This document shows, piece by piece, positions 4,389-63,101 of a stretch of 64,000 nt of DNA. The notes under the pieces are model-generated. The model made no database searches and was not told the DNA's origin. It saw only the letters and a list, made by a program, of their open reading frames with translations. The DNA is from a bacterium (GTDB lineage: Bacteria; Patescibacteriota; Minisyncoccia; UBA6257; 02-FULL-45-10c), in assembly GCA_021786945.1 (NCBI GenBank), contig JAJYMK010000003.1, forward strand, positions 151,299-215,298. Reading direction: 5' to 3'. Position numbers and translations under genes: made by a program. Numbering within the stretch: the stretch's first letter is position 1; each line of letters starts with the position of its first letter.

Positions 4389-5588
4389 ATGGCAGAAAAA
4401 GAAAAATTTGCTAGAACTAAGCCGCACGTTAACGTCGGAACAATTGGCCACGTCGACCACGGCAAAACTTCTTTAACAGCCGCTATTACCCACGTTCTCT
4501 TTTTAAAGGGTTGGGCTAAGAAAGAAGAAGGTGTAGATCAGATTGATAACGCTCCTGAAGAAAAAGCTCGTGGTATTACAATTGCTTTGCACCATTCTGA
4601 GTATGAGTCCGAAAAGAGACACTATGCTCACATTGATGCTCCGGGACACGCCGACTATATCAAGAACATGATTACCGGTGCTGCCCAGATGGATGGCGCC
4701 ATTCTCGTAGTTTCTGCCGCTGATGGTCCGATGCCTCAAACCAGAGAGCACATCTTGTTGGCTTATCAGGTAGGCGTTCCAAACCTTATTGTTTTCTTGA
4801 ACAAGTGCGATATGGTTGACGATCCGGAACTTATTGACTTGGTTGAATCCGAAGTCAGAGAGCTTCTCAAGAAATATAATTTCCCTGGCGACACCGTCCC
4901 AGTGATCAGAGGTTCCGCTACAAAGGCTATGGCTGTTAAGTCTGCCGATGAGCCGGATGCCAAACCGATCTTGGATCTCGTAAAGGCCATGGATGAATAT
5001 ATTCCTGACCCAGTCAGAGAAACAGGAAAGCCGTTCTTGATGCCTGTTGAAGATATTTTCTCAATTGAAGGAAGAGGTACGGTTGTTACCGGAAGAGTAG
5101 AAAGAGGTTCTGTTAAAGTAAACGAAGAAATTGAAATCATCGGTATTAAGCCGACTCAGAAGACGGTTGTTACCGGTATCGAAATGTTCCAAAAGGTTTT
5201 GGACGAAGGTACTGCTGGTGATAACGTAGGTATTCTCTTGAGAGGTCTTAAGAAAGAAGACGTAGAGAGAGGACAAGTCTTGGCTAAACCAGGAAGCGTT
5301 ACTCCTCACACTGACTTCGAATCTGAAGTTTACGTTCTCAGTAAAGAAGAAGGTGGTAGACACACCCCATTCTTTAAAGGATACAAACCACAGTTCTATA
5401 TCAGAACCACTGATGTTACGGGAGAAGTTACTTTGCCGGAAGGCATGGAAATGGTTATGCCTGGTGACACAGTAAAGTTCGTTGTTAAATTGATCGCTCC
5501 GGTTGCTTTGGAAGAAAAACAGCGTTTTGCTATCCGTGAAGGAGGTAAAACAGTTGGCGCTGGAGTTGTTACCAAAATCATTAAGTAA
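4389..5588 (+). CDS. tuf: Elongation factor Tu
   Basis: [27 protein letters not shown]...[26 protein letters not shown]: EF-Tu. Confidence 0.98.
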
Positions 5589-7369: not shown

Positions 7370-8194
7370 ATGAAAAGCTTTAGACCTACAACTCCATCAA
7401 GGAGACAAATGACTGTTGTCGAATATGACGTTCTTTCCAAGACCGCTCCTTTTAAGTCTTTGACTAAAAAGATTAAAGAATGCGCTGGAAGAAACAGCCA
7501 AGGAAGAATAACAACCAGACATCAGGGCGGAGGTAATAAAAAGATGTACAGGATGGTTGATTTTAATCAGAATAAACTTAATATTCCTGGAAGAGTAGAA
7601 ACCATTGAATATGATCCATATAGGACTGCTTTTATTGCCTTGGTTGTTTATAAAGACGGTGAAAGAAGATACGTTTTGGCTCCAAAGGATTTGAAAGTTG
7701 GAGACGAAATAGTTTCCGCTGAAAACGCTCCTTTAAAAACTGGCAACAGAATGATGGTTAAAAATATTCCTATCGGTTATCTGGTTCATAATATTGAGCT
7801 CGCTCCCGGCGAAGGTGGAAAAATGGTAAGATCCGCCGGATCTTTTGCCGAAATTCTGGGTCAGGAAGGCAGATTCGTAAATTTGAAACTTAGTTCTGGT
7901 GAAGTGAGAAAAGTTTTAGCCGATTCTTTGGCTTCCTTAGGGCAGGTATCCAATCCTGATTACAGCTTGACCGTTATTGGTAAAGCCGGAAGATCCAGGC
8001 ATTTGGGTATCAGGCCTACAGTTAGAGGTAAAGTCATGAATCCTTGCGATCATCCATACGGTGGTGGTGAAGGTAGAACCCAGAGAGGTACTAGGAAACC
8101 TAAAGATATTTGGGGTAATATTACTGGCGGAAGAAAAACCCGCGATAAAAAGAAGAGGTCAAATAAATTTATTATTCAAAGAAGAAAGAAATAA
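7370..8194 (+). CDS. rplB: 50S ribosomal protein L2
   Basis: HQGGGNKKMYRMVDF..., ...GRSRHLGIRPTVRGKVMNPCDHPYGGGEG: L2. Confidence 0.97.
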   Translation: MKSFRPTTPSRRQMTVVEYDVLSKTAPFKSLTKKIKECAGRNSQGRITTRHQGGGNKKMYRMVDFNQNKLNIPGRVETIEYDPYRTAFIALVVYKDGERRYVLAPKDLKVGDEIVSAENAPLKTGNRMMVKNIPIGYLVHNIELAPGEGGKMVRSAGSFAEILGQEGRFVNLKLSSGEVRKVLADSLASLGQVSNPDYSLTVIGKAGRSRHLGIRPTVRGKVMNPCDHPYGGGEGRTQRGTRKPKDIWGNITGGRKTRDKKKRSNKFIIQRRKK

Positions 8195-40546: not shown

Positions 40547-40903
40547 AAGTATTGGCACTAATAAGCCGGATTCTGTTTCGTTTAAAAACGGACAACAATT
40601 TATCTGGGCCGTTAATTACTTAACGGCTCTAGCGGCACATCCCTTGCGGGATACGGCCTTGCACTTGGGTAAGGATTTAGCCGTTTCACCCCAGCTTTTT
40701 TGTCTCTATAGCTGGATTAGACCAATTAGCTTGAGATTAGGTCTGCCCGATCTTTTCAAAACGGGCCGTCACTGCTCGCACCTCTATATTACTATCGATG
40801 GGTGTTACCCACTACCCCGCTCTTTGTTGCAAGCAACAAAGAAGTGTCCGGACTTTCCTCTCCGGTTAAAAACCGAAGCTGTTGTTTAAGGTACCAATAC
40901 TTT
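40545..40903 (-). ncRNA. rnpB: RNase P RNA, bacterial type A
   Basis: The minus strand contains the P4 5' strand GAGGAAAGUCCGGACAC, GGGUAACACCC, ...GCCCAGAUAAAUUGUUGUCCG...ACAGAAUCCGGCUUAUUAG, and a P1 helix (AAGUAUUGGUAC pairing with GUGCCAAUACUU). Each has a clear counterpart in E. coli M1 RNA. Confidence 0.9.
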
Positions 40904-51185: not shown

Positions 51186-51887
51186 ATGAATAAGATATGG
51201 GCGGCTGTACTGATATTTGTGTTTATTCCAGCGTTTAATTCTCAAGTAAGCGCTGAGATTAAAATTCTGGATATTGAGCTTCCGGAAACGGAAATTTCAA
51301 CATCAACACTTGTAAGCGAAGATGTTGTGATTTATACCGGAGAAAAATTGGAGAGGCCGAAATTAAGCATTGCGCTTGGTTTGGGCAATGGCTATAAACT
51401 TGGCGATCAAAAAGATGGACGTTATCATTATGATAATAGTTCTGTCATTTCTCTTCAATTTGGATATTTACCTTCAAAATATTTAGAAGTTCAGGGTGAA
51501 TATTCCAGAGTTGGAAATTTTTATCGCAAAAGATCATGGGGTGAGCAAAATCAAAGATTTAATAGTTATGGATTAAATCTTAAATTAAAAAGACCCTTGA
51601 TGTTTGATTCGATAAAATTATTTCCTTATATAGTAGTAGGTATGGGAAAAAACAGAATGACTTACTGCGGCATAGATACCGGAAAAAATTTCAGTTATTC
51701 CGGATTTGGAAATTACAGAAAAATAGGAGTAGGGGCTGAAGTTGACTTAAATAGGGATTTTTTTCTGTTTTCTGAATATAACTACTATAAAATGGGTTTA
51801 ATTACCTTCCGTCTTAAAAGCGGAAAGGAAGTCAAAAACTTCCCATATTATTCAGTAGTTTTTTCCGGAATTGGAATTAAATTCTAA
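51186..51887 (+). CDS. Secreted protein with outer-membrane beta-barrel-like features
   Basis: Signal peptide (MNKIWAAVLIFVFIPAFNSQVSA). Alternating hydrophobic, Gly/Tyr-rich strands (SIALGLGNGYKLG, FGYLPSKYLEVQGEY). C-terminal ...GIGIKF ends in Phe. Confidence 0.45.
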   Translation: MNKIWAAVLIFVFIPAFNSQVSAEIKILDIELPETEISTSTLVSEDVVIYTGEKLERPKLSIALGLGNGYKLGDQKDGRYHYDNSSVISLQFGYLPSKYLEVQGEYSRVGNFYRKRSWGEQNQRFNSYGLNLKLKRPLMFDSIKLFPYIVVGMGKNRMTYCGIDTGKNFSYSGFGNYRKIGVGAEVDLNRDFFLFSEYNYYKMGLITFRLKSGKEVKNFPYYSVVFSGIGIKF

Positions 51888-51940: not shown

Positions 51941-54900
51941 TTAATTTTTCTGACATTCACCAGAAGATGAACATGTATATCCTTCATCACACGTTCCGCA
52001 ACTTATCATTCCCCCGCAAACCGGATCGGTCATATTTCCACACTCCCTTTTACTTTTATTAGCAGTTACACAAATGCTTGAAATATTCGGGACGCACACG
52101 CAATTATTATTGATACATTGTTCTTGTTTTGTCGTATTACAAATTTTTGGACCAAGCACGCTTTGATTTTTAACGGGACTGCAATTAGTAGTAGATTGTA
52201 AAAGTGTTCCGCATGTATTTGATGTAATAGCTGGACTCCAAATTGGCGTAAGAGTTCCCGATACATTGTATTTTCTAACTCCGCAATTACTTATTTGAGT
52301 AAGTGTTGATCCTTGGCAAACAGTTGAATCAGGCGGTGACCAGATTGAGTCGGTGCAAGTAAAAGCCGTTCCACCAACTGATTCTTCATAGCTATTTTCG
52401 TCTCCAGCAATAACTATTGAAAACTTATCCATATTTCCTTCTGCCGCAATAAACCAGGTGGGATCAATGTAGCAGCTCCCCCCTTCAAATTTAAGAGTAC
52501 TCCAATCATAGTTTGAAATACTAAAACAATAATGTTTTATTCCATTTACTGATACATAAACATTATAGCCGGTTGCTAAATCGCCGGAAACGGAGTTTAT
52601 AGTAAGCTTTCCTGATGTTAAATCAAAATTTAATGGATTAATTGTCACCGGTCCTGGTTCTGGATATGTTATCCTGAACCCATTTTTTAAAGTTGATTGA
52701 GTCAGGATATTGTTATTTGCATCTTTCATGACAACTTTAACGTCGAATAGTCCTGTAGTAACTGCGCTAATATCGCAAACGCCATTTGTTATTTCCGTAG
52801 AACTTGCAAATTTAAAACCTGAACAATTAATTAAATCATTAGCGCCTGGATTTATCAGTGCCACTTCTATTTTTACGGGAGGCGGCAAAAATCCTGCGCC
52901 GTAAATGGATATATTTTCAATTTTATTTTGATAGTTCAAACCATCAGTAGTTACTATTATTCCATCGCTTGAACCGAGGCTATTTTTAGCTCGAATTGTA
53001 TATGAAAGTTTTTGTTGTGGGGTTTCCTTGAATTTATTGTCGTCGAAAGAAGTTGTTGTTCTTTGTATTTCAGTTGTGCTTCCTACGCCACTTCTGGTGA
53101 TAATATATTCTAAATTTTCCCCACCTAAATTTAAAGGTGGATCCCATGACAAAGAAAACCCCCTATTTATTGGAATGATTTTGACATTTCTTGGATTAGA
53201 TGGCTTACTTTTTGTGGTATACACTAAAGAAGTGGGTACTGTATCTTCTATTCTTGAGCAGCCGGACAAGGATGCTTGCATTGTTCCACAAATTATTGTT
53301 TTAAGATGAATAGTTGGATTGCCCCATTCGGAATTATAGTCAACTTGCCTCATAGATCCACTAAAATAACCGTAATTGGCATAACTTGCGCCGCTAGGAA
53401 GACTGAATTTAATCTCATCCAGTGATTTATAAACCCATAAACTATCTAGGCCACAATTAGCGCAATAATTGTATCCCATATAGCCAATATGATACGGAAA
53501 ACAAATTCCATAATGATCAACGCAGTTGCCGGATAACGTACAACAAGAATTTGCATTTTGCTTTGTAAATGTAGATCCGCTTTCGGCACAGCTTGGTTTT
53601 GCTCCCCAGCAACTACTTCCTCTTCCGCCTAAAACATTTGGAGAGTTATACATTGTCCCATTCTTCCAAATAGGAAATGAATCTATAGAAGCTTTTATGT
53701 AGCCATTAGAATTTAAGCAGTTTAGCAAGGATTCCATAGTTTTCGTTGTTGCTTCTGTTTGTGTTTTGTAAGAACCCTGCCAATTAATATCCTCGGACGA
53801 TCTTAAAGAATCTGTTGGTGTAAGATACACAGATCCGTCTGGAGCAACGTATTTGCTTACAAATGGCGAACAAATATATTTTGCTTCTGGATTGGTACAC
53901 GGTATCCCAATAGCTTGTGGGCAATATCTGCGATAAACTACTTTATCAAATTTTATAGCTTTATATTCTATAGGACTTGGGCTTGCATTTATTTCCCCGC
54001 TTTGAGAGCTAGCCCCAACATTATTTTTTGCGGCAATTTTATAATAATAAGTGGCTCCATTTATTACGGCGGTATCCACATAGTTCAAAACATTTCCAAT
54101 TTCAATTGGACTGGAATTGAATTGCCCAGAAACCTCACTTTTATAGATGAGGTAACCAGTAATTGGACTTCCCCCGTCTTTTGTGGGAGAGTTCCAATTT
54201 AATGAAACTTGGGCATTTTCACTGTTGGCAGAAAAATTTTGAGGAATTTCCGGAGCTATGGCAAAGGGCGTAGCATCTGCTTCGCTGCTTTGAGTTCCAA
54301 TGCCTTTTGTATTTTTTGCGGCAATTTTATAAAAATATTTTGTACCGTTAGAAACAGTTGTGTCCGTATAGGTTAATACGTTTGCTGTTTCGGTCAAAAG
54401 CGTTTCTCCGCCAGAAGCGGTTCCTCTATAAATTTCATAATTAGTTATAGCATCACCGCCGTTATTAATTGGAGCTGCCCAGGAAAGAGAAGCTTGAGAA
54501 TTTTCACTTACAACGATTAAATTTTGCGGAGCATCTGGGCTGGAAATGGTAAATGCAGAAAAAGTTGGAACCACGATATGGCTAACATCGTAACAGTTTT
54601 TACCATTTATATCACATCTTGTTTTAGTAATATCAATTATTGGCGGGAGGAATGTTGGATACATAACTCTATCCTGGCCAATAATATCGAGTTTTCCGTA
54701 TGTCCAAATCTGAAATTCAGGGGTGTTTTCGAGGATGGTGTACCACCGTCCCGTCCAACCATATTGCAGACATTTTTTTTTCAAATTATTGATACTTTCA
54801 TCAATAGCTTGAGCTTGTGAGTTGAAGGTTTTTACTTCTGGCCCACCATATTTTGTAACGTCTAAGCAGGAATCATCATTCGATCTAAGAAAGCGTGAAT

Positions 54901-54982
54901 TTTTGTAAAAAGTATCTGCGTTAACCGAAAACGGATTTATTAATAAAGCTCCGACTAATAATAATAAATTTTTTTTATTCAT
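51941..54982 (-). CDS. Large secreted surface protein (1013 aa) with at least 3 fibronectin type III repeats and a Cys-rich C-terminal region
   Basis: Signal peptide MNKKNLLLLVGALLINPFSVNA. Repeated FN3 units (...PQNLIVVSENSQASLSWAAPINNGGDAITNYEIYRG...KYFYKIAAKNTKG...). The C-terminal 120 aa are Cys-dense. Confidence 0.7.
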   Translation of the reverse strand: MNKKNLLLLVGALLINPFSVNADTFYKNSRFLRSNDDSCLDVTKYGGPEVKTFNSQAQAIDESINNLKKKCLQYGWTGRWYTILENTPEFQIWTYGKLDIIGQDRVMYPTFLPPIIDITKTRCDINGKNCYDVSHIVVPTFSAFTISSPDAPQNLIVVSENSQASLSWAAPINNGGDAITNYEIYRGTASGGETLLTETANVLTYTDTTVSNGTKYFYKIAAKNTKGIGTQSSEADATPFAIAPEIPQNFSANSENAQVSLNWNSPTKDGGSPITGYLIYKSEVSGQFNSSPIEIGNVLNYVDTAVINGATYYYKIAAKNNVGASSQSGEINASPSPIEYKAIKFDKVVYRRYCPQAIGIPCTNPEAKYICSPFVSKYVAPDGSVYLTPTDSLRSSEDINWQGSYKTQTEATTKTMESLLNCLNSNGYIKASIDSFPIWKNGTMYNSPNVLGGRGSSCWGAKPSCAESGSTFTKQNANSCCTLSGNCVDHYGICFPYHIGYMGYNYCANCGLDSLWVYKSLDEIKFSLPSGASYANYGYFSGSMRQVDYNSEWGNPTIHLKTIICGTMQASLSGCSRIEDTVPTSLVYTTKSKPSNPRNVKIIPINRGFSLSWDPPLNLGGENLEYIITRSGVGSTTEIQRTTTSFDDNKFKETPQQKLSYTIRAKNSLGSSDGIIVTTDGLNYQNKIENISIYGAGFLPPPVKIEVALINPGANDLINCSGFKFASSTEITNGVCDISAVTTGLFDVKVVMKDANNNILTQSTLKNGFRITYPEPGPVTINPLNFDLTSGKLTINSVSGDLATGYNVYVSVNGIKHYCFSISNYDWSTLKFEGGSCYIDPTWFIAAEGNMDKFSIVIAGDENSYEESVGGTAFTCTDSIWSPPDSTVCQGSTLTQISNCGVRKYNVSGTLTPIWSPAITSNTCGTLLQSTTNCSPVKNQSVLGPKICNTTKQEQCINNNCVCVPNISSICVTANKSKRECGNMTDPVCGGMISCGTCDEGYTCSSSGECQKN

Positions 54983-54986
54983 GATT

Positions 54987-55508
54987 TTATTTAATTATCG
55001 TTAATTCAATTAAATCTAAGATTTTATTGGTTAAAACATTTTCTTTAATCAGGGCATCAAATTTATAGCCGGATTTTATTTCTCGAATTGATATGTCCGA
55101 TAAATAATTTCCATTAGGTTTTATTTCATTGATATATATTTTAGTAGAAGTTGATATATTTAAGGAATACTCATTTTCGGTGTAAGTATTATTAATACCT
55201 ATAGATGTTCTTTCGGCTGTTAATACCTTTGCCGTTACCAAGATTTTATTTCCATTAATTGATTTTATGGTTCCGTTTAAAGCATTTAATACAAATGCAT
55301 CATTTTCTAAATTTTTAAAAGATTCGGTTTGGGCTACAAGATAATTATCTGATTTTTTATAGATTGAATAAGTAAAATAACCAGCAATAATAAGAGTTAT
55401 AAAAATAATTACGAATATTAAAATTTTTTTATTTTTTGTCATACTTTTATTGTACCCCTCCCTTTTAATAATTACCAATTTGTTAATAATTTTTTTAAAA
55501 AATTGCAT
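54987..55508 (-). CDS. Hypothetical membrane-anchored protein (N-terminal TM), co-directional and 4 nt upstream of the large surface protein
   Basis: ORF and hydrophobic segment only. Confidence 0.4.
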   Translation of the reverse strand: MQFFKKIINKLVIIKREGYNKSMTKNKKILIFVIIFITLIIAGYFTYSIYKKSDNYLVAQTESFKNLENDAFVLNALNGTIKSINGNKILVTAKVLTAERTSIGINNTYTENEYSLNISTSTKIYINEIKPNGNYLSDISIREIKSGYKFDALIKENVLTNKILDLIELTIIK

Positions 55509-58615: not shown

Positions 58616-58686
58616 TGCCGGGTCGTCTAACGGTAGGACATCGCCCTTTGGAGGCGAGTATCGGGGTTCGAGTCCCTGCCCGGCAG
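58616..58686 (+). tRNA. tRNA-Gln (anticodon UUG)
   Basis: Cloverleaf: acceptor TGCCGGG pairs with CCCGGCA. D-arm GTCT...GGAC. Anticodon stem TCGCC/GGCGA with loop cTTTGGa (anticodon TTG). T-arm CGGGG-TTCGAGT-CCCTG. Discriminator G, no encoded CCA. An extended -10 (TGTGATAAT) lies about 30 nt upstream. Confidence 0.85.
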
Positions 58687-58689
58687 CTC

Positions 58690-59397
58690 CTAAGTTTGCA
58701 GTTTATATAATTCTTCTAACGCTATAACATGGCTACAAATTTTTTTCTGTGTAAAAAAATCACAATCACAAAGCCATTGATTGTCTCGTTTTATTAAATT
58801 TCTAGTACCGTGTTCGGCATCTATTGTGGCTTTTTCTAATTCTATTTTGAATCTTCTGGGTTCATTTATATATTTTTTAGCTTTAATAATTTTTCCGATT
58901 AAATCCTCAACAAATTTTTGATTTAATTCCCTATTATTTTCAGTTAATTCAATTAATATTATATCCTTTCTTTTTTTAATATTTTCAATAAAATCGTCAC
59001 TATATATTTTAGATAAAGTTACTAAACAAATATTGGGAGAATTTAATATTAAATTGGTTGCTTTTTTAAATTTTTCTGAATAAAGTTCCATTTGTCCAAT
59101 CTCATCTAAATATAAAAGATCCCCTTCTTTAAATTGAAGTATTTCGGGAATGACTAATTCTAGATTGTTTATATCTACAAAATATCTTGAAACTTTATAT
59201 TCTGTTAAAAAATTAACACTTGCGAGCATGGCCTTTTTGCCGGTGCTGGTTACTATTTCAAAACCAACCCTTTCGCCATTTTCGCGAACTTCGTTAGTAA
59301 CAAATCCAACTTTGTTTGGATAACTCAAAATGACTTTATTTAAGAGTGTAGACTTACCACTTCTTGGCATTCCCGTAACAATAATATTTTTTCTCAT
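58690..59397 (-). CDS. THEP1-like NTPase fused to a C-terminal SWIM zinc finger
   Basis: Walker A IIVTGMPRSGKSTLLNKV, Walker B LLYLDEIGQMEL, and C-terminal W-x-CDCDFF...CSHVIA (CxC...CxH SWIM). The track ORF extends to 59478 across the 32-bp repeat; I prefer the start at M28 (59397). Confidence 0.6.
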   Translation of the reverse strand: MRKNIIVTGMPRSGKSTLLNKVILSYPNKVGFVTNEVRENGERVGFEIVTSTGKKAMLASVNFLTEYKVSRYFVDINNLELVIPEILQFKEGDLLYLDEIGQMELYSEKFKKATNLILNSPNICLVTLSKIYSDDFIENIKKRKDIILIELTENNRELNQKFVEDLIGKIIKAKKYINEPRRFKIELEKATIDAEHGTRNLIKRDNQWLCDCDFFTQKKICSHVIALEELYKLQT

Positions 59398-59438
59398 TAG
59401 ATAAATATTATCACATTTGTACGGCTTCTTTTTCTTTG

Positions 59439-59470
59439 AAAAAGGTTCCAACTTCGTCCCAGACGGCCAG
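59439..59470 (+). repeat. 32-bp direct repeat, copy 1: AAAAAGGTTCCAACTTCGTCCCAGACGGCCAG
   Basis: Identical 32-mer also at 60113-60144 and 63049-63080, same orientation, all intergenic. Confidence 0.9.
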
Positions 59471-59536
59471 CAAATCAATCCCCTATTTTTAAATCAAAAC
59501 TATTGATATAATTTTTGTATTAAATTTTTAAAAATT

Positions 59537-60088
59537 ATGAATAATATTTTTAAATCTAAAATCAAAAGAGAAATTGTCAATTTTTTAACCGGCGAAAAAT
59601 ATGAAATGCTTGGTGGCTTAGACATGTCTTTTTCGGAAGATGATGTTAAAAAGATTACAAAAATATGTTCCCAAAAAGATGCTTACGATATTTTATTTAA
59701 AAATAGATTAAGCGGAAAGCCTTATACAGAAAAAAATGCCCGGAGTTTTATAGATTGGATTAAAGACGGTTGGAAAAATCAAACTCATTTTGTGTTTTTG
59801 ATAAGAAAACAAGATTCGGAGATAATTGGCGCCATTGATATAAAAAGCCCCGATCTTAATAGGGCTGAGATTGGATATTGGGCTGATGAAAATTATAGAG
59901 GTTTTATGACAAGCGCTGTAAATGAATTATTTTTTATAGCAAAAGAAAGTGGTTATATTAAATTATTTGCCGGAGTTTTGGCTAAAAACAATAAATCTAT
60001 TGCCGTATTAGAACGTACTGGTTTTAGGAAGGTAAAAGAAGATAAAAAAGACGGCGAAGATCATTTCATATACGAAAAAGAATTATAA
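59537..60088 (+). CDS. GNAT family N-acetyltransferase (RimJ/RimL-like)
   Basis: ...HFVFLIRKQDSEIIGAIDIKSPDLNRAEIGYWADENYRGFMTSAVNELFFIAKESGYIKLFAGVLAKNNKSIAVLERTGF: GNAT motifs A/B. Confidence 0.75.
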   Translation: MNNIFKSKIKREIVNFLTGEKYEMLGGLDMSFSEDDVKKITKICSQKDAYDILFKNRLSGKPYTEKNARSFIDWIKDGWKNQTHFVFLIRKQDSEIIGAIDIKSPDLNRAEIGYWADENYRGFMTSAVNELFFIAKESGYIKLFAGVLAKNNKSIAVLERTGFRKVKEDKKDGEDHFIYEKEL

Positions 60089-60098
60089 TCTTAGCTTA

Positions 60099-60839
60099 GT
60101 GATTACCTTCAAAAAAAGGTTCCAACTTCGTCCCAGACGGCCAGAATACACCATAAAAGACGGCGTTGTTTTGGAATCAGAGCTAATAAAAAATCGTTTT
60201 TTTGATTCTAAACAAATTAAGAATTTAAAAGAATCAGTTGAGTGGAGAAGCGTTCCCTTATTTAATATGAATTACCCGATTAATCTTTATATATTATCAA
60301 AACACCCAGAAATAATTTCTAAAGAAGATTATAAAAAGTTTTTAAGACAATCACTTGAGAGAATAAAATTAGGCGTTTTAAAAGCAGAGGAAAATGTTAA
60401 GGGGGATGGACATAATTATTTAGAAATTACAAATAACTATGCCGGTAAGAGCATATGGTTTTCAGAAGAACGGGTAGTAAAAGAAGGAGATGATAAATAT
60501 AAAAAAATATCAGAATATGCTGAAAAATTTGTTAAAGATTTATTTGATCAGAATTCATCTAAATATGTGGGTATAACAAAGGATGAATATCAATTGAGTA
60601 ATGAGATATTAGAATATATAGAAAAATTAATTAATAATATAGAGATAGCCTCAAAAAATAAAGATGTTTTTAAAATTAAATATTTAGTTGCATCTATTTT
60701 TTTAACATTTATAATTTCTTTGATTGTTAGTTGGTTTGTAAAAATAAACGCATTTATTATTTTTATAGTCGTTCAAATAGTTACTTTTTTTCAGGCTTTT
60801 ATTGGTGGCTGGATAGATAAAAAAATTAAAAAAAGATAA
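60099..60839 (+). CDS. Hypothetical protein with two C-terminal TM helices (start uncertain)
   Basis: The ORF from a GTG at 60099 contains repeat copy 2. An internal ATG at 60267 (MNYPINLY...) is a more likely start. Confidence 0.35.
   Translation: MITFKKRFQLRPRRPEYTIKDGVVLESELIKNRFFDSKQIKNLKESVEWRSVPLFNMNYPINLYILSKHPEIISKEDYKKFLRQSLERIKLGVLKAEENVKGDGHNYLEITNNYAGKSIWFSEERVVKEGDDKYKKISEYAEKFVKDLFDQNSSKYVGITKDEYQLSNEILEYIEKLINNIEIASKNKDVFKIKYLVASIFLTFIISLIVSWFVKINAFIIFIVVQIVTFFQAFIGGWIDKKIKKR
60113..60144 (+). repeat. 32-bp direct repeat, copy 2
   Basis: Identical to copy 1. Confidence 0.9.
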
Positions 60840-60875
60840 ATCCCATTCCTTTGTAAAAATAGGTATTCAGGTATC

Positions 60876-61700
60876 ATGAATAAAGTTTTTAAATCACAAG
60901 AAGAATTAAAAAAAGAATTAGATTCACAATTCAAACTTCTAAAAGTTTTAACCGAGCAATATGACAAAGGCGATGTGATTATAGGAAAGTCGATAGCGAC
61001 TTCTATTCGGGTACTTGTTCATGACACAGATGATTCGCGCTCTTTGCTTGGGCAACTTAATTTTAAAAATAGAAAATTTTTTGACACGGCCTGCCCCGAC
61101 ATCTTTCCTGTACCAGGAAAAATTCAGCGTATTGGAAGTTTTTGTGGCTTAGTAAGTATCGGTAGCGTTAATAATGAGCAGACTTATATCCCCTATCTTG
61201 ATGAGGCTCCTGTTAAAAAATTTGGTTTTGTAAATTTTGATGAGTTTTGGAATAGGATAATTTTTATTGATAATAATAAAAACAGCTTTACAAGAAAAGA
61301 AATAGTTTTGGCTATTGCTAACCAAGATGGTGGTGCGCACGTTGATCCAAAAATTGAAAAAAAATACAAAGAGTTATCTAGAGAGAATTCTCTTGGTTGG
61401 AAAGCTAGTTTAGACGGAAAAATTTGGAATGATTCATGCGGTTCTGAGCTGGCTGCAGTACGTCAAATCGCACATGAGTTACTGCGCACATTTGAGATCG
61501 AATATCCTTATAAAAAAATGGTGACCGGTGATGCCGGATTTATTTTAGGTGGAATGGGTTTTATAATTAGTAATACCACCGATGTAAATAGTATTACGGA
61601 TTATTTGGTGAATAAGAAAAAAATTGGACCAAATAAAAAATGTCTATGCGGAAGTGGTCAGAAATATAAAAAATGTCATGGAAAGTATGGTTGGATATAA
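60876..61700 (+). CDS. SEC-C motif domain protein (C-terminal CxC...CH metal-binding motif) with an unknown N-terminal domain
   Basis: C-terminus KKCLCGSGQKYKKCHGKYGW is a SecA-C/YecA-type SEC-C motif. I recognise no family for the N-terminal domain of about 250 aa. Confidence 0.55.
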   Translation: MNKVFKSQEELKKELDSQFKLLKVLTEQYDKGDVIIGKSIATSIRVLVHDTDDSRSLLGQLNFKNRKFFDTACPDIFPVPGKIQRIGSFCGLVSIGSVNNEQTYIPYLDEAPVKKFGFVNFDEFWNRIIFIDNNKNSFTRKEIVLAIANQDGGAHVDPKIEKKYKELSRENSLGWKASLDGKIWNDSCGSELAAVRQIAHELLRTFEIEYPYKKMVTGDAGFILGGMGFIISNTTDVNSITDYLVNKKKIGPNKKCLCGSGQKYKKCHGKYGWI

Positions 61701-61718
61701 TTTTATAAAATTATATTT

Positions 61719-62468
61719 TTATGCCTTACTATTTCTAGATAATACTTCATTTAATTTATAACAAAATTCAGAATTAAAAACTGGTTCTATATATGTATCA
61801 TCTAGGTATTTTTTTAATCCGGCTAAATTTTCAATTATATAAACAAGGGGCTCTATTCGTTCAATAACTTTAGATTTGCCAACCAACAAAATAGCCTTCC
61901 TTGATTTAATTACTATTCCTTGTTTTTCGAGATAATTAATTAATTTTAGTTCGTGTCTATTAATTTCATCGATTGGATTTTGCCATTTATTTAATTCACA
62001 AATACATTTATTTCCTTTACACCACTCTTCTTTAAAAAATTTATCGCCCAAAACTCTGAAATTGCCAGATATATTTTTAATTTCAAATATCAATAAACCT
62101 TTCTTACCAACTACAATTGCATCAATATCAAATCCTCCATCTGAAAATTTAAAATTTTTATAAATTTTATAACCCTCATTATTTGGCAAGAGCTCTTCTA
62201 ATTTTTTAAAGGCCCTTCTTTCACCCATCCATCCCATAAGAGAATGCAATGAAATAAGTCCCAATCTATCCCCTAATCGTCCCATAAAAATCCAAAACCA
62301 AGAAAATATAATTCCGAATATTATTCCAGCGATAAATAATAAAGCTGGAACGTCTAGTTTAAAATCTTTTAAATTAGTAAGACCATATAAAATTACTGAT
62401 ATACCAAATAGCAATAAAGCTATTACTATAATTGTTACTTGCAAAAATTTACGTTTAGAATAAGACAT
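61719..62468 (-). CDS. NERD (nuclease-related domain) protein with two N-terminal TM helices
   Basis: GERRAFKKLEELLPNNEGYKIYKNFKF...GGFDIDAIVVGKKGLLIFEIKNISGNF...WQNPIDEINRHELKL: NERD pattern. Confidence 0.6.
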   Translation of the reverse strand: MSYSKRKFLQVTIIVIALLLFGISVILYGLTNLKDFKLDVPALLFIAGIIFGIIFSWFWIFMGRLGDRLGLISLHSLMGWMGERRAFKKLEELLPNNEGYKIYKNFKFSDGGFDIDAIVVGKKGLLIFEIKNISGNFRVLGDKFFKEEWCKGNKCICELNKWQNPIDEINRHELKLINYLEKQGIVIKSRKAILLVGKSKVIERIEPLVYIIENLAGLKKYLDDTYIEPVFNSEFCYKLNEVLSRNSKA

Positions 62469-62537
62469 TTTAAAATTATATCAAAATATTATTGACTATT
62501 AAATTTATTAAACATATATTAAATTTACAAATAAAAT

Positions 62538-62996
62538 ATGGATACTAAATTTCCAAAACTTGATAAAAAATTTATTAACTGGTCGACATTTTTTCATGCG
62601 GGTACTGAATGGTTAGAGATATTTGAAATATTAGACAAAGAAACAAATAAACAATATGGATTTATTTCTTTTTACGCATATCCGTATATTTTGTATTTTT
62701 CTTTAGAACTTTTTGTGAAATCATTAGCAAAATATGAGGACTGTACTTTTGACGCAAAAAAAGACGGGTTTCTTCACAGTGTAACGGATATATTTGTAAA
62801 ATATAAAGATATTCCATTTTTTTTTGAAATTATTCAGAATCACAAACTTTTTAACCTTATTAAAGAATATGAGAAAACTTTAAATACGCGTTTTGGCGAG
62901 ACGGCTGTGCAAATAAATGGATTAGATACTAAATTAGTATTAGAAACGGTTTATAAATTAAGAGGAGAAATATGTAAAAAAACAGGATTAAGATAA
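62538..62996 (+). CDS. Hypothetical protein (152 aa)
   Basis: ORF only. Confidence 0.3.
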   Translation: MDTKFPKLDKKFINWSTFFHAGTEWLEIFEILDKETNKQYGFISFYAYPYILYFSLELFVKSLAKYEDCTFDAKKDGFLHSVTDIFVKYKDIPFFFEIIQNHKLFNLIKEYEKTLNTRFGETAVQINGLDTKLVLETVYKLRGEICKKTGLR

Positions 62997-63048
62997 TAAC
63001 GCATTCGGAGATCTCAATAGCATATTAGATATATATAATATTTTTTAT

Positions 63049-63080
63049 AAAAAGGTTCCAACTTCGTCCCAGACGGCCAG
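63049..63080 (+). repeat. 32-bp direct repeat, copy 3
   Basis: Identical to copies 1 and 2. Confidence 0.9.
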
Positions 63081-63101
63081 CTCTCACTTTTTGAAAATAC
63101 T

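Follow-up and report, generated by a model that had tools for sequence, protein, structure and literature searches.

A SEC-C protein gene and a membrane-anchored NERD nuclease gene in a Patescibacteria-type bacterium are probably independent neighbours in a repeat-punctuated segment

Two convergent genes, here called A and B, lie side by side in a 64,000-nucleotide stretch of contig JAJYMK010000003.1 (the window), which derives from a small-genome, Patescibacteria-type bacterium. Gene A encodes a protein with a C-terminal SEC-C motif and gene B a membrane-anchored protein with a NERD nuclease domain. The first-pass annotation read the pair as one small defence or abortive-infection (Abi) module. 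We consider it probable instead that A and B are not partners but separate accessory genes, each gained by horizontal transfer. Their families did not convincingly co-occur in 139 other loci with A relatives or in three informative loci with B relatives, and we read the adjacency as a chance neighbourhood. Taken singly, each gene may plausibly serve in defence, as judged by the neighbours of its family elsewhere; what falls away is the two-gene module.

Both genes lie in a 4.4-kb low-GC segment subdivided by three copies of a direct repeat. In the account that we favour, A is a candidate stand-alone Abi or defence effector, a single-gene role that we infer from the genomic company of its relatives, with a flexible linker predicted to join its N-terminal domain to a SecA-type zinc or iron knuckle. 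Tentatively, A is also a putative RNase, because its predicted fold is weakly HEPN-like and carries an R196-x3-H200 motif. More speculatively, its tail might dock the protein on ribosomes, by analogy with the known behaviour of the SecA metal-binding domain, which is reported to bind SecB and ribosomes (bioRxiv 10.1101/613315). B would be a PD-(D/E)xK nuclease that faces the cytoplasm, is held at the membrane by its two helices and cuts DNA nearby, most likely as a defence or mobile-element function.

Gene families A and B do not convincingly co-occur in the loci examined

Homologues of both A and B occur elsewhere, which marks them as real genes and not chance open reading frames (ORFs). As first described, they converge, with 18 nt separating their stop codons in the ORF list, and this orientation rules out their co-transcription. 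Using a profile built from 79 B-family sequences, we searched up to 10 kb of flanking DNA on each side of A relatives. No B-family or NERD match reached E < 1e-3 in the 79 distinct species-representative genome loci with A relatives, and no convincing match was found in all 139 non-self A loci (1.7 Mb). The three closest relatives of A (70, 67 and 61% identity) have no NERD neighbour, and the three informative loci with B relatives have no A relative. Neither of the two orphan ORFs that share the repeat-bounded segment recurs near relatives of A or B. Should A have a partner, the orphan ORF that ends 36 nt before it and runs in the same direction would be a stronger candidate than B, though this ORF, too, is unique to the source genome.

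The sole marginal B-family or NERD matches (E about 0.005) lie 4.5 kb from an A relative in four near-identical viral contigs. These matches, in IMG/VR contigs L111-L115 (for example, L111 10063-10449) and downstream of the A relative there, are too weak to count as co-occurrence and give only a hint.

Gene A encodes an uncharacterized N-terminal domain with a SecA-type tail

The product of gene A, initially put at about 250 aa, is 274 aa long. Its predicted C-terminal SEC-C motif is borne out by Pfam (residues 253-270, 25.5 bits against a cut-off of 20.4), and the zinc knuckle reads C256-x-C258-x8-C267-H268, a SecA-type CxCx8CH arrangement. A hydropathy scan found no membrane segment. No Pfam family matches residues 1-250, in line with the earlier description of an unknown N-terminal domain; that description needs one amendment, as residues 1-207 match the phage protein family phrog_7805 (E = 2.8e-43), to which no function has been assigned. 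The N-terminal family is uncharacterized and is absent from Pfam and PADLOC.

A large homologue search returned 1,419 homologues of A; the SEC-C tail is missing from roughly one in five of the relatives listed. Across an alignment of 107 sequences, D30, R45, L57, W125, R140, G152, G153, H155, R196, Q197 and E201 are invariant, as are the knuckle residues C256, C258 and C267, and H200 is conserved in at least 90%. An AlphaFold2 model computed from these 107 relatives is confident (mean predicted local distance difference test (pLDDT) 88; predicted template modelling score (pTM) 0.84). It places long helices at residues 8-30 and 34-48, a beta-rich insert at about 57-139, helices at 140-150 and 162-169, a further beta element and a long helix at 190-206 bearing R196, Q197, H200 and E201, followed by a low-confidence linker and the knuckle. 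The conserved N-terminal domain is thereby modelled as a helical bundle with an inserted beta subdomain, and its fold appears weakly HEPN-like. An ImmA-type or zincin protease was rejected, as no second histidine follows H200-E201 and HExxH is absent.

Gene A relatives are patchily distributed, and some occupy mobile or restriction loci

A scan with one genome per species gave 303 loci with A relatives; the best 80 were taken up and 79 distinct loci analysed. These best 80 of the 303 span Patescibacteria, Bacteroidota, Alpha-, Beta-, Gamma- and Deltaproteobacteria, Firmicutes, Chloroflexi, Nitrospirae, Actinomycetota and two archaea. Such a patchy and wide taxonomic spread is typical of horizontally moving genes. 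Immediate neighbours are heterogeneous: among 150 flanking proteins, the commonest are specificity subunits of type I restriction-modification (R-M) systems (4), phage integrases (4) and N6 methylases (3).

In 6 of the 79 genome loci, the A relative lies between hsdS and hsdR on the same strand, with reading frames that overlap or abut. All six (47-51% identity) fall within the eight best-ranked loci of the scan, and their operons have a further inserted gene, for AbiTii, a KAP NTPase or an unknown protein of roughly 250 aa. In L105, a metagenomic relative with 61% identity repeats the order hsdS-A-hsdR with overlapping frames, followed by a Phd/ParE pair and a Fic gene. The other two of the three closest relatives neighbour DUF6886 and DUF1905 genes (70% identity) and SOD and ComEC genes (67%). 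No hsdR, hsdM or hsdS homologue was found anywhere in the window, where A stands without an R-M partner.

Plasmids and phages also carry the family. A 37%-identical copy (WP_031559009.1) directly follows hsdR-hsdM-hsdS on the lactococcal dairy plasmid pNCDO184J, A relatives adjoin the integrase in Lactobacillus phages PL-1 and J-1, and Gordonia phage JuJu carries one in the stretch that separates its tail genes from its serine integrase and also contains RelBE. IMG/VR holds 50 viral contigs with an A relative. A PL-1-like integrase occurs in the examined flank of eight of these 50 loci, and of the 35 contigs that are 20 kb or longer, 13 have the relative within 3 kb of a contig end (6 expected). 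The interiors of R-M operons and the lysogeny regions of prophages are usual positions of Abi and exclusion genes. A literature search for SEC-C with hsdR or hsdS, or with defence islands, returned nothing relevant.

Gene B encodes a putative membrane-tethered nuclease of a small family

The earlier prediction of a NERD protein with two transmembrane segments stands. Pfam NERD matches residues 79-187 of B (E = 1.3e-17, 64.7 bits against a cut-off of 22.1), a hydropathy scan places hydrophobic segments at 9-27 and 43-61, and the N-terminus is positively charged. An alignment of 36 family members retains the same two N-terminal hydrophobic helices and shows D114, E129 and K131 to be invariant. 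B has a PD-(D/E)xK fold, and these three residues are the intact D...ExK triad of restriction-endonuclease-like nucleases.

The B family is small and fast-evolving. An exhaustive search of 1.84 billion cluster representatives recovered 161 relatives at E ≤ 0.001, nearly all of them 240-275 aa long and aligned over their full length, with a best identity to B of 37%. A word-indexed homologue search returned only B itself and one distant relative, and its repetition with a 36-sequence profile gave four matches. The family seems largely confined to small-genome contigs resembling the Candidate Phyla Radiation (CPR). Phage records contained no B relative, and plasmids a single NERD-domain match (Methanothermobacter).

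Genomic context was available from three informative relative loci. In one, Fic and GNAT genes adjoin the B relative; in another, on a 588-kb contig, the neighbours are AbiEi/AbiEii and a serine recombinase; in the third, the relative lies between NYN and Mrr_cat nuclease genes. The serine recombinase of the AbiEi/AbiEii locus (L088 11973-13313), about 3 kb from the B relative, is similar to one found beside R-M-embedded A relatives (discussed below), and it seems that integrative elements of one kind carry the A family in some Patescibacteria and Bacteroidales genomes and the B family in others.

Genes A and B lie in a low-GC segment next to tRNA-Gln

The low-GC variable segment, 4.4 kb long, begins directly 3′ of a tRNA-Gln gene (Table 1); GC content is 0.283 over 58690-63100 and 0.361 in the remaining window. 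Exact 32-nt direct repeats flank a 2.9-kb part of it that contains A and B, as the repeat-delimited cassette of the first-pass annotation implied. This part, between repeat copies 2 and 3, holds four ORFs and not two, in the order orphan, A, B, orphan. A GNAT acetyltransferase gene is the only gene between copies 1 and 2, and a gene for an NTPase_1 protein with a SWIM zinc finger lies between tRNA-Gln and copy 1. The same gene arrangement is kept across several sampled contigs of the source organism, with one single-nucleotide polymorphism in copy 3 of a sister contig.

Table 1 Features of the segment downstream of tRNA-Gln, with positions in the window
Feature	Position	Strand	Evidence or remark
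tRNA-Gln (UUG)	58616..58687	+	ARAGORN; Rfam tRNA 58.7 bits
NTPase_1 (THEP1-like P-loop) with C-terminal SWIM zinc finger	58690..59400	-	Pfam NTPase_1 E 9.6e-39, SWIM E 2e-4
32-nt direct repeat, copy 1	59439..59470	+	Exact match
GNAT acetyltransferase	59537..60088	+	Pfam Acetyltransf_3 E 1.5e-17
32-nt direct repeat, copy 2	60113..60144	+	Exact match
Orphan ORF with C-terminal membrane helix	60099..60839	+	ORF list; hydrophobic segment 196-214
Gene A: phrog_7805 N-terminal domain (about 1-210), flexible linker, SecA-type metal-binding motif	60876..61700	+	274 aa
Gene B: two N-terminal membrane helices, NERD / PD-(D/E)xK nuclease domain	61719..62468	-	249 aa
Orphan ORF, 152 aa	62538..62996	+	ORF list; divergent from B, 69-nt gap
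32-nt direct repeat, copy 3	63049..63080	+	Exact match

The NTPase_1/SWIM gene probably starts with the ATG at 59400 and is annotated as 235 aa in locus L002. The listed GTG start of the upstream orphan overlaps repeat copy 2, which makes a later start codon the more probable one; the ORF has the same orientation as A and ends 36 nt before it. This ORF had no Pfam, PADLOC, PHROG or NCBIfam match and no homologue in the other loci examined; the same searches gave the 152-aa orphan no significant family match and no homologue in other loci. PADLOC weakly matched the NTPase_1/SWIM protein to the MADS component mad8 and B to MAD6. A MADS system was rejected, as both matches reflect generic P-loop and NERD domains and score far below the cut-offs.

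The repeat recurs in tRNA-linked arrays of other genomes

All three exact copies of the 32-nt repeat (AAAAAGGTTCCAACTTCGTCCCAGACGGCCAG) are on the + strand, and 100 shuffles give an expectation of zero matches. The other 60 kb of the window contain no further copy, on which ground a genome-wide repetitive extragenic palindromic (REP) element was rejected. A 23-nt core (GGTTCCAACTTCGTCCCAGACGG) is 100% identical in seven other metagenome contigs (L093-L099) with unrelated flanks on both sides. In five of the seven, a same-strand tRNA gene precedes the core by about 400-1200 nt (Gln in three, Tyr in one and Leu in one). The core is identical across these organisms, and their tRNA-Gln genes are 73-81% identical to that of the window. 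A copy of the tRNA-Gln 3′ end was rejected on comparison by eye; the same core, moreover, follows Gln, Tyr and Leu tRNAs.

A profile search of the core-bearing contigs revealed extra degenerate direct copies, giving arrays of two or three. The copies sit in short gaps between small ORFs of unrelated function, including a diacylglycerol kinase, a periplasmic binding protein, a P-loop kinase and a hydrolase, some of them enclosed by two copies, others in the interval from the tRNA to the first copy. In L004, the 70%-identical A relative is found without B, two genes downstream of tRNA-Gln and about 70 nt behind a degenerate repeat copy (7900-7930). Because of this arrangement, we recognize a tRNA-proximal, repeat-punctuated variable locus that is common to related organisms and of which A is one interchangeable content.

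The repeat may be a recombination site or a regulatory site. By a count derived from the array maps, a + strand start codon follows 11 of the 14 copies at a distance of 14-67 nt. Its hairpin is only 4 bp (CGTC-CCA-GACG), and a stable RNA or DNA structure was rejected because folding energies resemble those of shuffled sequences (z-scores -1.6 to +1.4). A dif-like or attC-like palindrome was likewise rejected, as the inverted-repeat architecture is absent. No Rfam family matches the repeat, and it was not found in viral contigs. One repeat variant has a compensatory change in the hairpin (CGTA-CTA-TACG).

Homing-type elements cluster around the tRNA-linked repeat arrays. In L093, a LAGLIDADG-type ORF of about 234 aa (4577-5281, - strand) reaches to within a few bases of tRNA-Gln on its upstream side, and a closely similar ORF occupies the same position just upstream of tRNA-Gln in L098 (3124-3825, - strand). 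L099 has an HNH endonuclease fragment upstream of tRNA-Leu (1397-1621, - strand), and L096 a group I intron (1577-1823, 73 bits) 1.3 kb from the repeat.

Comparison with known systems

Neither protein was recognized by PADLOC as a member of a known system, which had been proposed as a check on the defence module; only the SEC-C tail and the bare NERD domain were matched. HEPN toxins and Abi proteins (HEPN/MNT 7ae2 and 5yep, AbiV 9bj5 and Csm6) have the canonical HEPN catalytic motif, Rx4-6H, in place of the R196-x3-H200 of A. Relative to them, A has an inserted beta subdomain of about 80 residues and the C-terminal SEC-C tail, and it has neither a sequence-profile link nor a Foldseek match to them. 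A also bears a second invariant cluster, R140 and D151-G-G-x-H155, of a type that to our knowledge is not a HEPN feature.

The insertion of A relatives between hsdS and hsdR recalls the restriction-linked Abi proteins PrrC and RloC, this being the classic PrrC position in a type I R-M operon. A differs in that it has no ABC-ATPase domain, no similarity to either protein and, in the window, no R-M partner. A further comparison is Rugutis (pUCCL633_059), an experimentally active single-gene antiphage protein of a lactococcal plasmid whose only recognizable feature is SEC-C; Rugutis is 359 aa long, its SEC-C motif is N-terminal and its fold has no PDB match (PMC11381338). Compared by description only, the two proteins share SEC-C and differ in length and in the position of the motif, which is C-terminal in the 274-aa A. 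SecA and the YecA and YchJ proteins share with A a CxCx8C[HC] knuckle after a flexible linker, and SecA metal-binding domain peptides match A with E = 8e-4 from the single sequence and 2e-8 from the family profile; the likeness is confined to the last 25 residues or so, and the N-terminal domains are unrelated.

The nuclease domain of B aligns with the N-terminal NERD region of BREX PglW, Mokosh MkoA and MADS MAD6 (E = 6e-9 to 4e-4). In PADLOC and NCBIfam, B matches the NERD portion alone of these proteins and falls far below their cut-offs (33 bits against 990 for PglW; 23.7 against 460 for MAD6). These proteins are 600-1600 aa long, contain kinase or helicase domains and belong to multi-gene systems, whereas B is 249 aa and membrane-anchored. 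Unlike the PD-(D/E)xK effectors Can2, NucC and McrC and type II restriction enzymes, B has a two-helix membrane anchor and no CARF or other ligand-sensing domain.

The repeat array resembles integron cassette arrays in its short, often single-ORF segments separated by one same-orientation repeat at a fixed chromosomal landmark. It differs from them in having no attC-type imperfect palindrome and no adjacent integrase, the latter by an insensitive phmmer test; here, moreover, the repeat is about 32 nt long, the landmark is a tRNA gene and the genes of the second segment lie in both orientations.

Alternative explanations

Several observations weigh against reading A and B as independent genes with A as a HEPN-like defence effector. 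Pfam, NCBIfam and PADLOC recognize only the C-terminal tail of A, and PADLOC has no model for either A or B. Foldseek found no significant PDB match to the A model, no HEPN-type match to A was obtained from Pfam, NCBIfam or PADLOC at E ≤ 0.1, and the A-family profile searched against PDB sequences returned SEC-C peptides only and no HEPN protein; the Rx3H spacing, too, departs from the canonical motif. Some A relatives lie in ordinary housekeeping neighbourhoods. The Patescibacteria and Bacteroidales R-M loci with A share a nearly identical large serine recombinase (E = 1e-159 to 1e-176) just upstream of the R-M operon (upstream of hsdM in L008, L009, L010, L012 and L013), and for this reason the R-M-embedded loci may be one mobile element counted several times. 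On the B side, the pairing test comprises three informative contexts only, and the comparative data alone leave room for a lineage-specific functional link between A and B.

Such a link would make A and B, possibly with the two orphan ORFs, a lineage-specific defence module in which one protein senses infection and the membrane nuclease executes. The adjacency of the genes within one repeat-bounded segment, with stops 18 nt apart, the stability of the arrangement across contigs of the source organism and the defence-type neighbours of both families elsewhere all fit this idea, but we judge it highly improbable: the families do not co-occur in either direction, convergent transcription rules out one operon, the orphans do not recur near relatives of A or B, and A relatives stand alone in R-M operons, phages and plasmids. 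It is also decidedly unlikely that A is a housekeeping factor associated with SecA, SecB or the ribosome, of the YecA or YchJ kind and without a defence role. Although the SEC-C motif, weak NCBIfam matches to YchJ/YecA-type models, the housekeeping neighbours of some relatives and a Xanthomonas relative named 'YecA family protein' by NCBI all point that way, the NCBIfam matches are confined to residues 236-271 (15-36 bits against cut-offs of 120-158), so that the label of the relative rests on the zinc knuckle alone. The N-terminal domain is unrelated to those of YecA and YchJ, about a fifth of the listed relatives lack the tail, and the family is patchy across phyla and present in phages, plasmids and R-M operons.

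For B, a role in DNA uptake or nucleotide salvage, with the nuclease acting on imported DNA at the membrane of a small-genome auxotroph, is unlikely though still credible. It would suit a membrane-tethered PD-(D/E)xK nuclease with an intact active site, from a family that seems largely confined to small-genome, CPR-like contigs, is absent from phage records and has one NERD match on a plasmid. It would suit less well a family that is small and fast-evolving (161 representatives, best identity 37%), non-syntenic and located here in a low-GC island, with AbiE, Mrr, NYN, Fic and serine recombinase genes as neighbours and not competence genes. The whole segment might, finally, be an integron-like mobile cassette array with the 32-nt repeat as recombination site and A and B as cargo; this is quite unlikely, and would be compatible with the independence of A and B. 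It accords with three exact direct copies that bound a one-gene and a four-gene segment, with an identical core between unrelated flanks in seven other contigs, with the presence of a same-strand tRNA gene a few hundred to about 1200 nt before the core in five of these seven, in the window and in L004, with degenerate direct copies bounding single small ORFs of unrelated function, with the 70%-identical A behind such a copy in L004, and with a repeat better conserved (100%) than the adjacent tRNA-Gln genes. Against it, no recombinase was found beside the other repeat arrays or in the window (phmmer with one tyrosine and one serine recombinase query, an insensitive test), the repeat has no attC or dif inverted-repeat architecture, neither presence/absence polymorphism of cassettes nor a circular intermediate was observed, several of the 'cassette' genes resemble ordinary metabolic genes, and a regulatory or RNA-level role fits the spacing before start codons equally well. 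It is also quite unlikely that the repeat is the recombination site of an undescribed Patescibacteria cassette-capture system, with its recombinase encoded elsewhere and with A, and perhaps B, as circulating defence cassettes; such a system would assemble small gene cassettes into arrays behind tRNA genes. A literature search on integrons in Patescibacteria yielded nothing relevant.

Significance

As chance neighbours, A and B have no importance as a pair; gene A is what matters. The protein domains of A and B are themselves already known, the uncharacterized part being the N-terminal family of A. Through A, the locus points to a family of more than 1,400 sequence clusters that is missing from defence catalogues and Pfam models and spans CPR bacteria, Lactococcus plasmids, actinophages and archaea. 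Its members occur at classic Abi sites, within type I restriction operons and temperate-phage lysogeny regions, which makes it a candidate new single-gene immunity protein, and the SecA-type tail suggests an unusual targeting of an effector to ribosomes. Antiphage assays are established in Lactococcus, the host genus of one plasmid copy of A (PMC11381338).

B adds a family of membrane-tethered nucleases that appears typical of small-genome bacteria. The repeat is the most unusual feature of the locus. Small-genome bacteria of this kind have few classical mobile elements, and tRNA-linked repeat arrays could reveal accessory-gene exchange among them.

Other features of the window

Three observations concern other parts of the window. 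In a precomputed annotation of the identical contig, a 233-aa product (51186-51887, + strand) has a match to Pfam OMP_b-brl, an outer-membrane beta-barrel family, which would be unexpected for a Patescibacteria-like genome. The match to bacterial class A RNase P RNA at 40548-40897 on the - strand barely exceeds the Rfam gathering threshold (104.6 bits against 100). A sharp GC trough (0.23-0.28) at 54750-55500 spans a 173-aa ORF (54987-55508, - strand) and the short gap before a typA/bipA-like GTPase gene.

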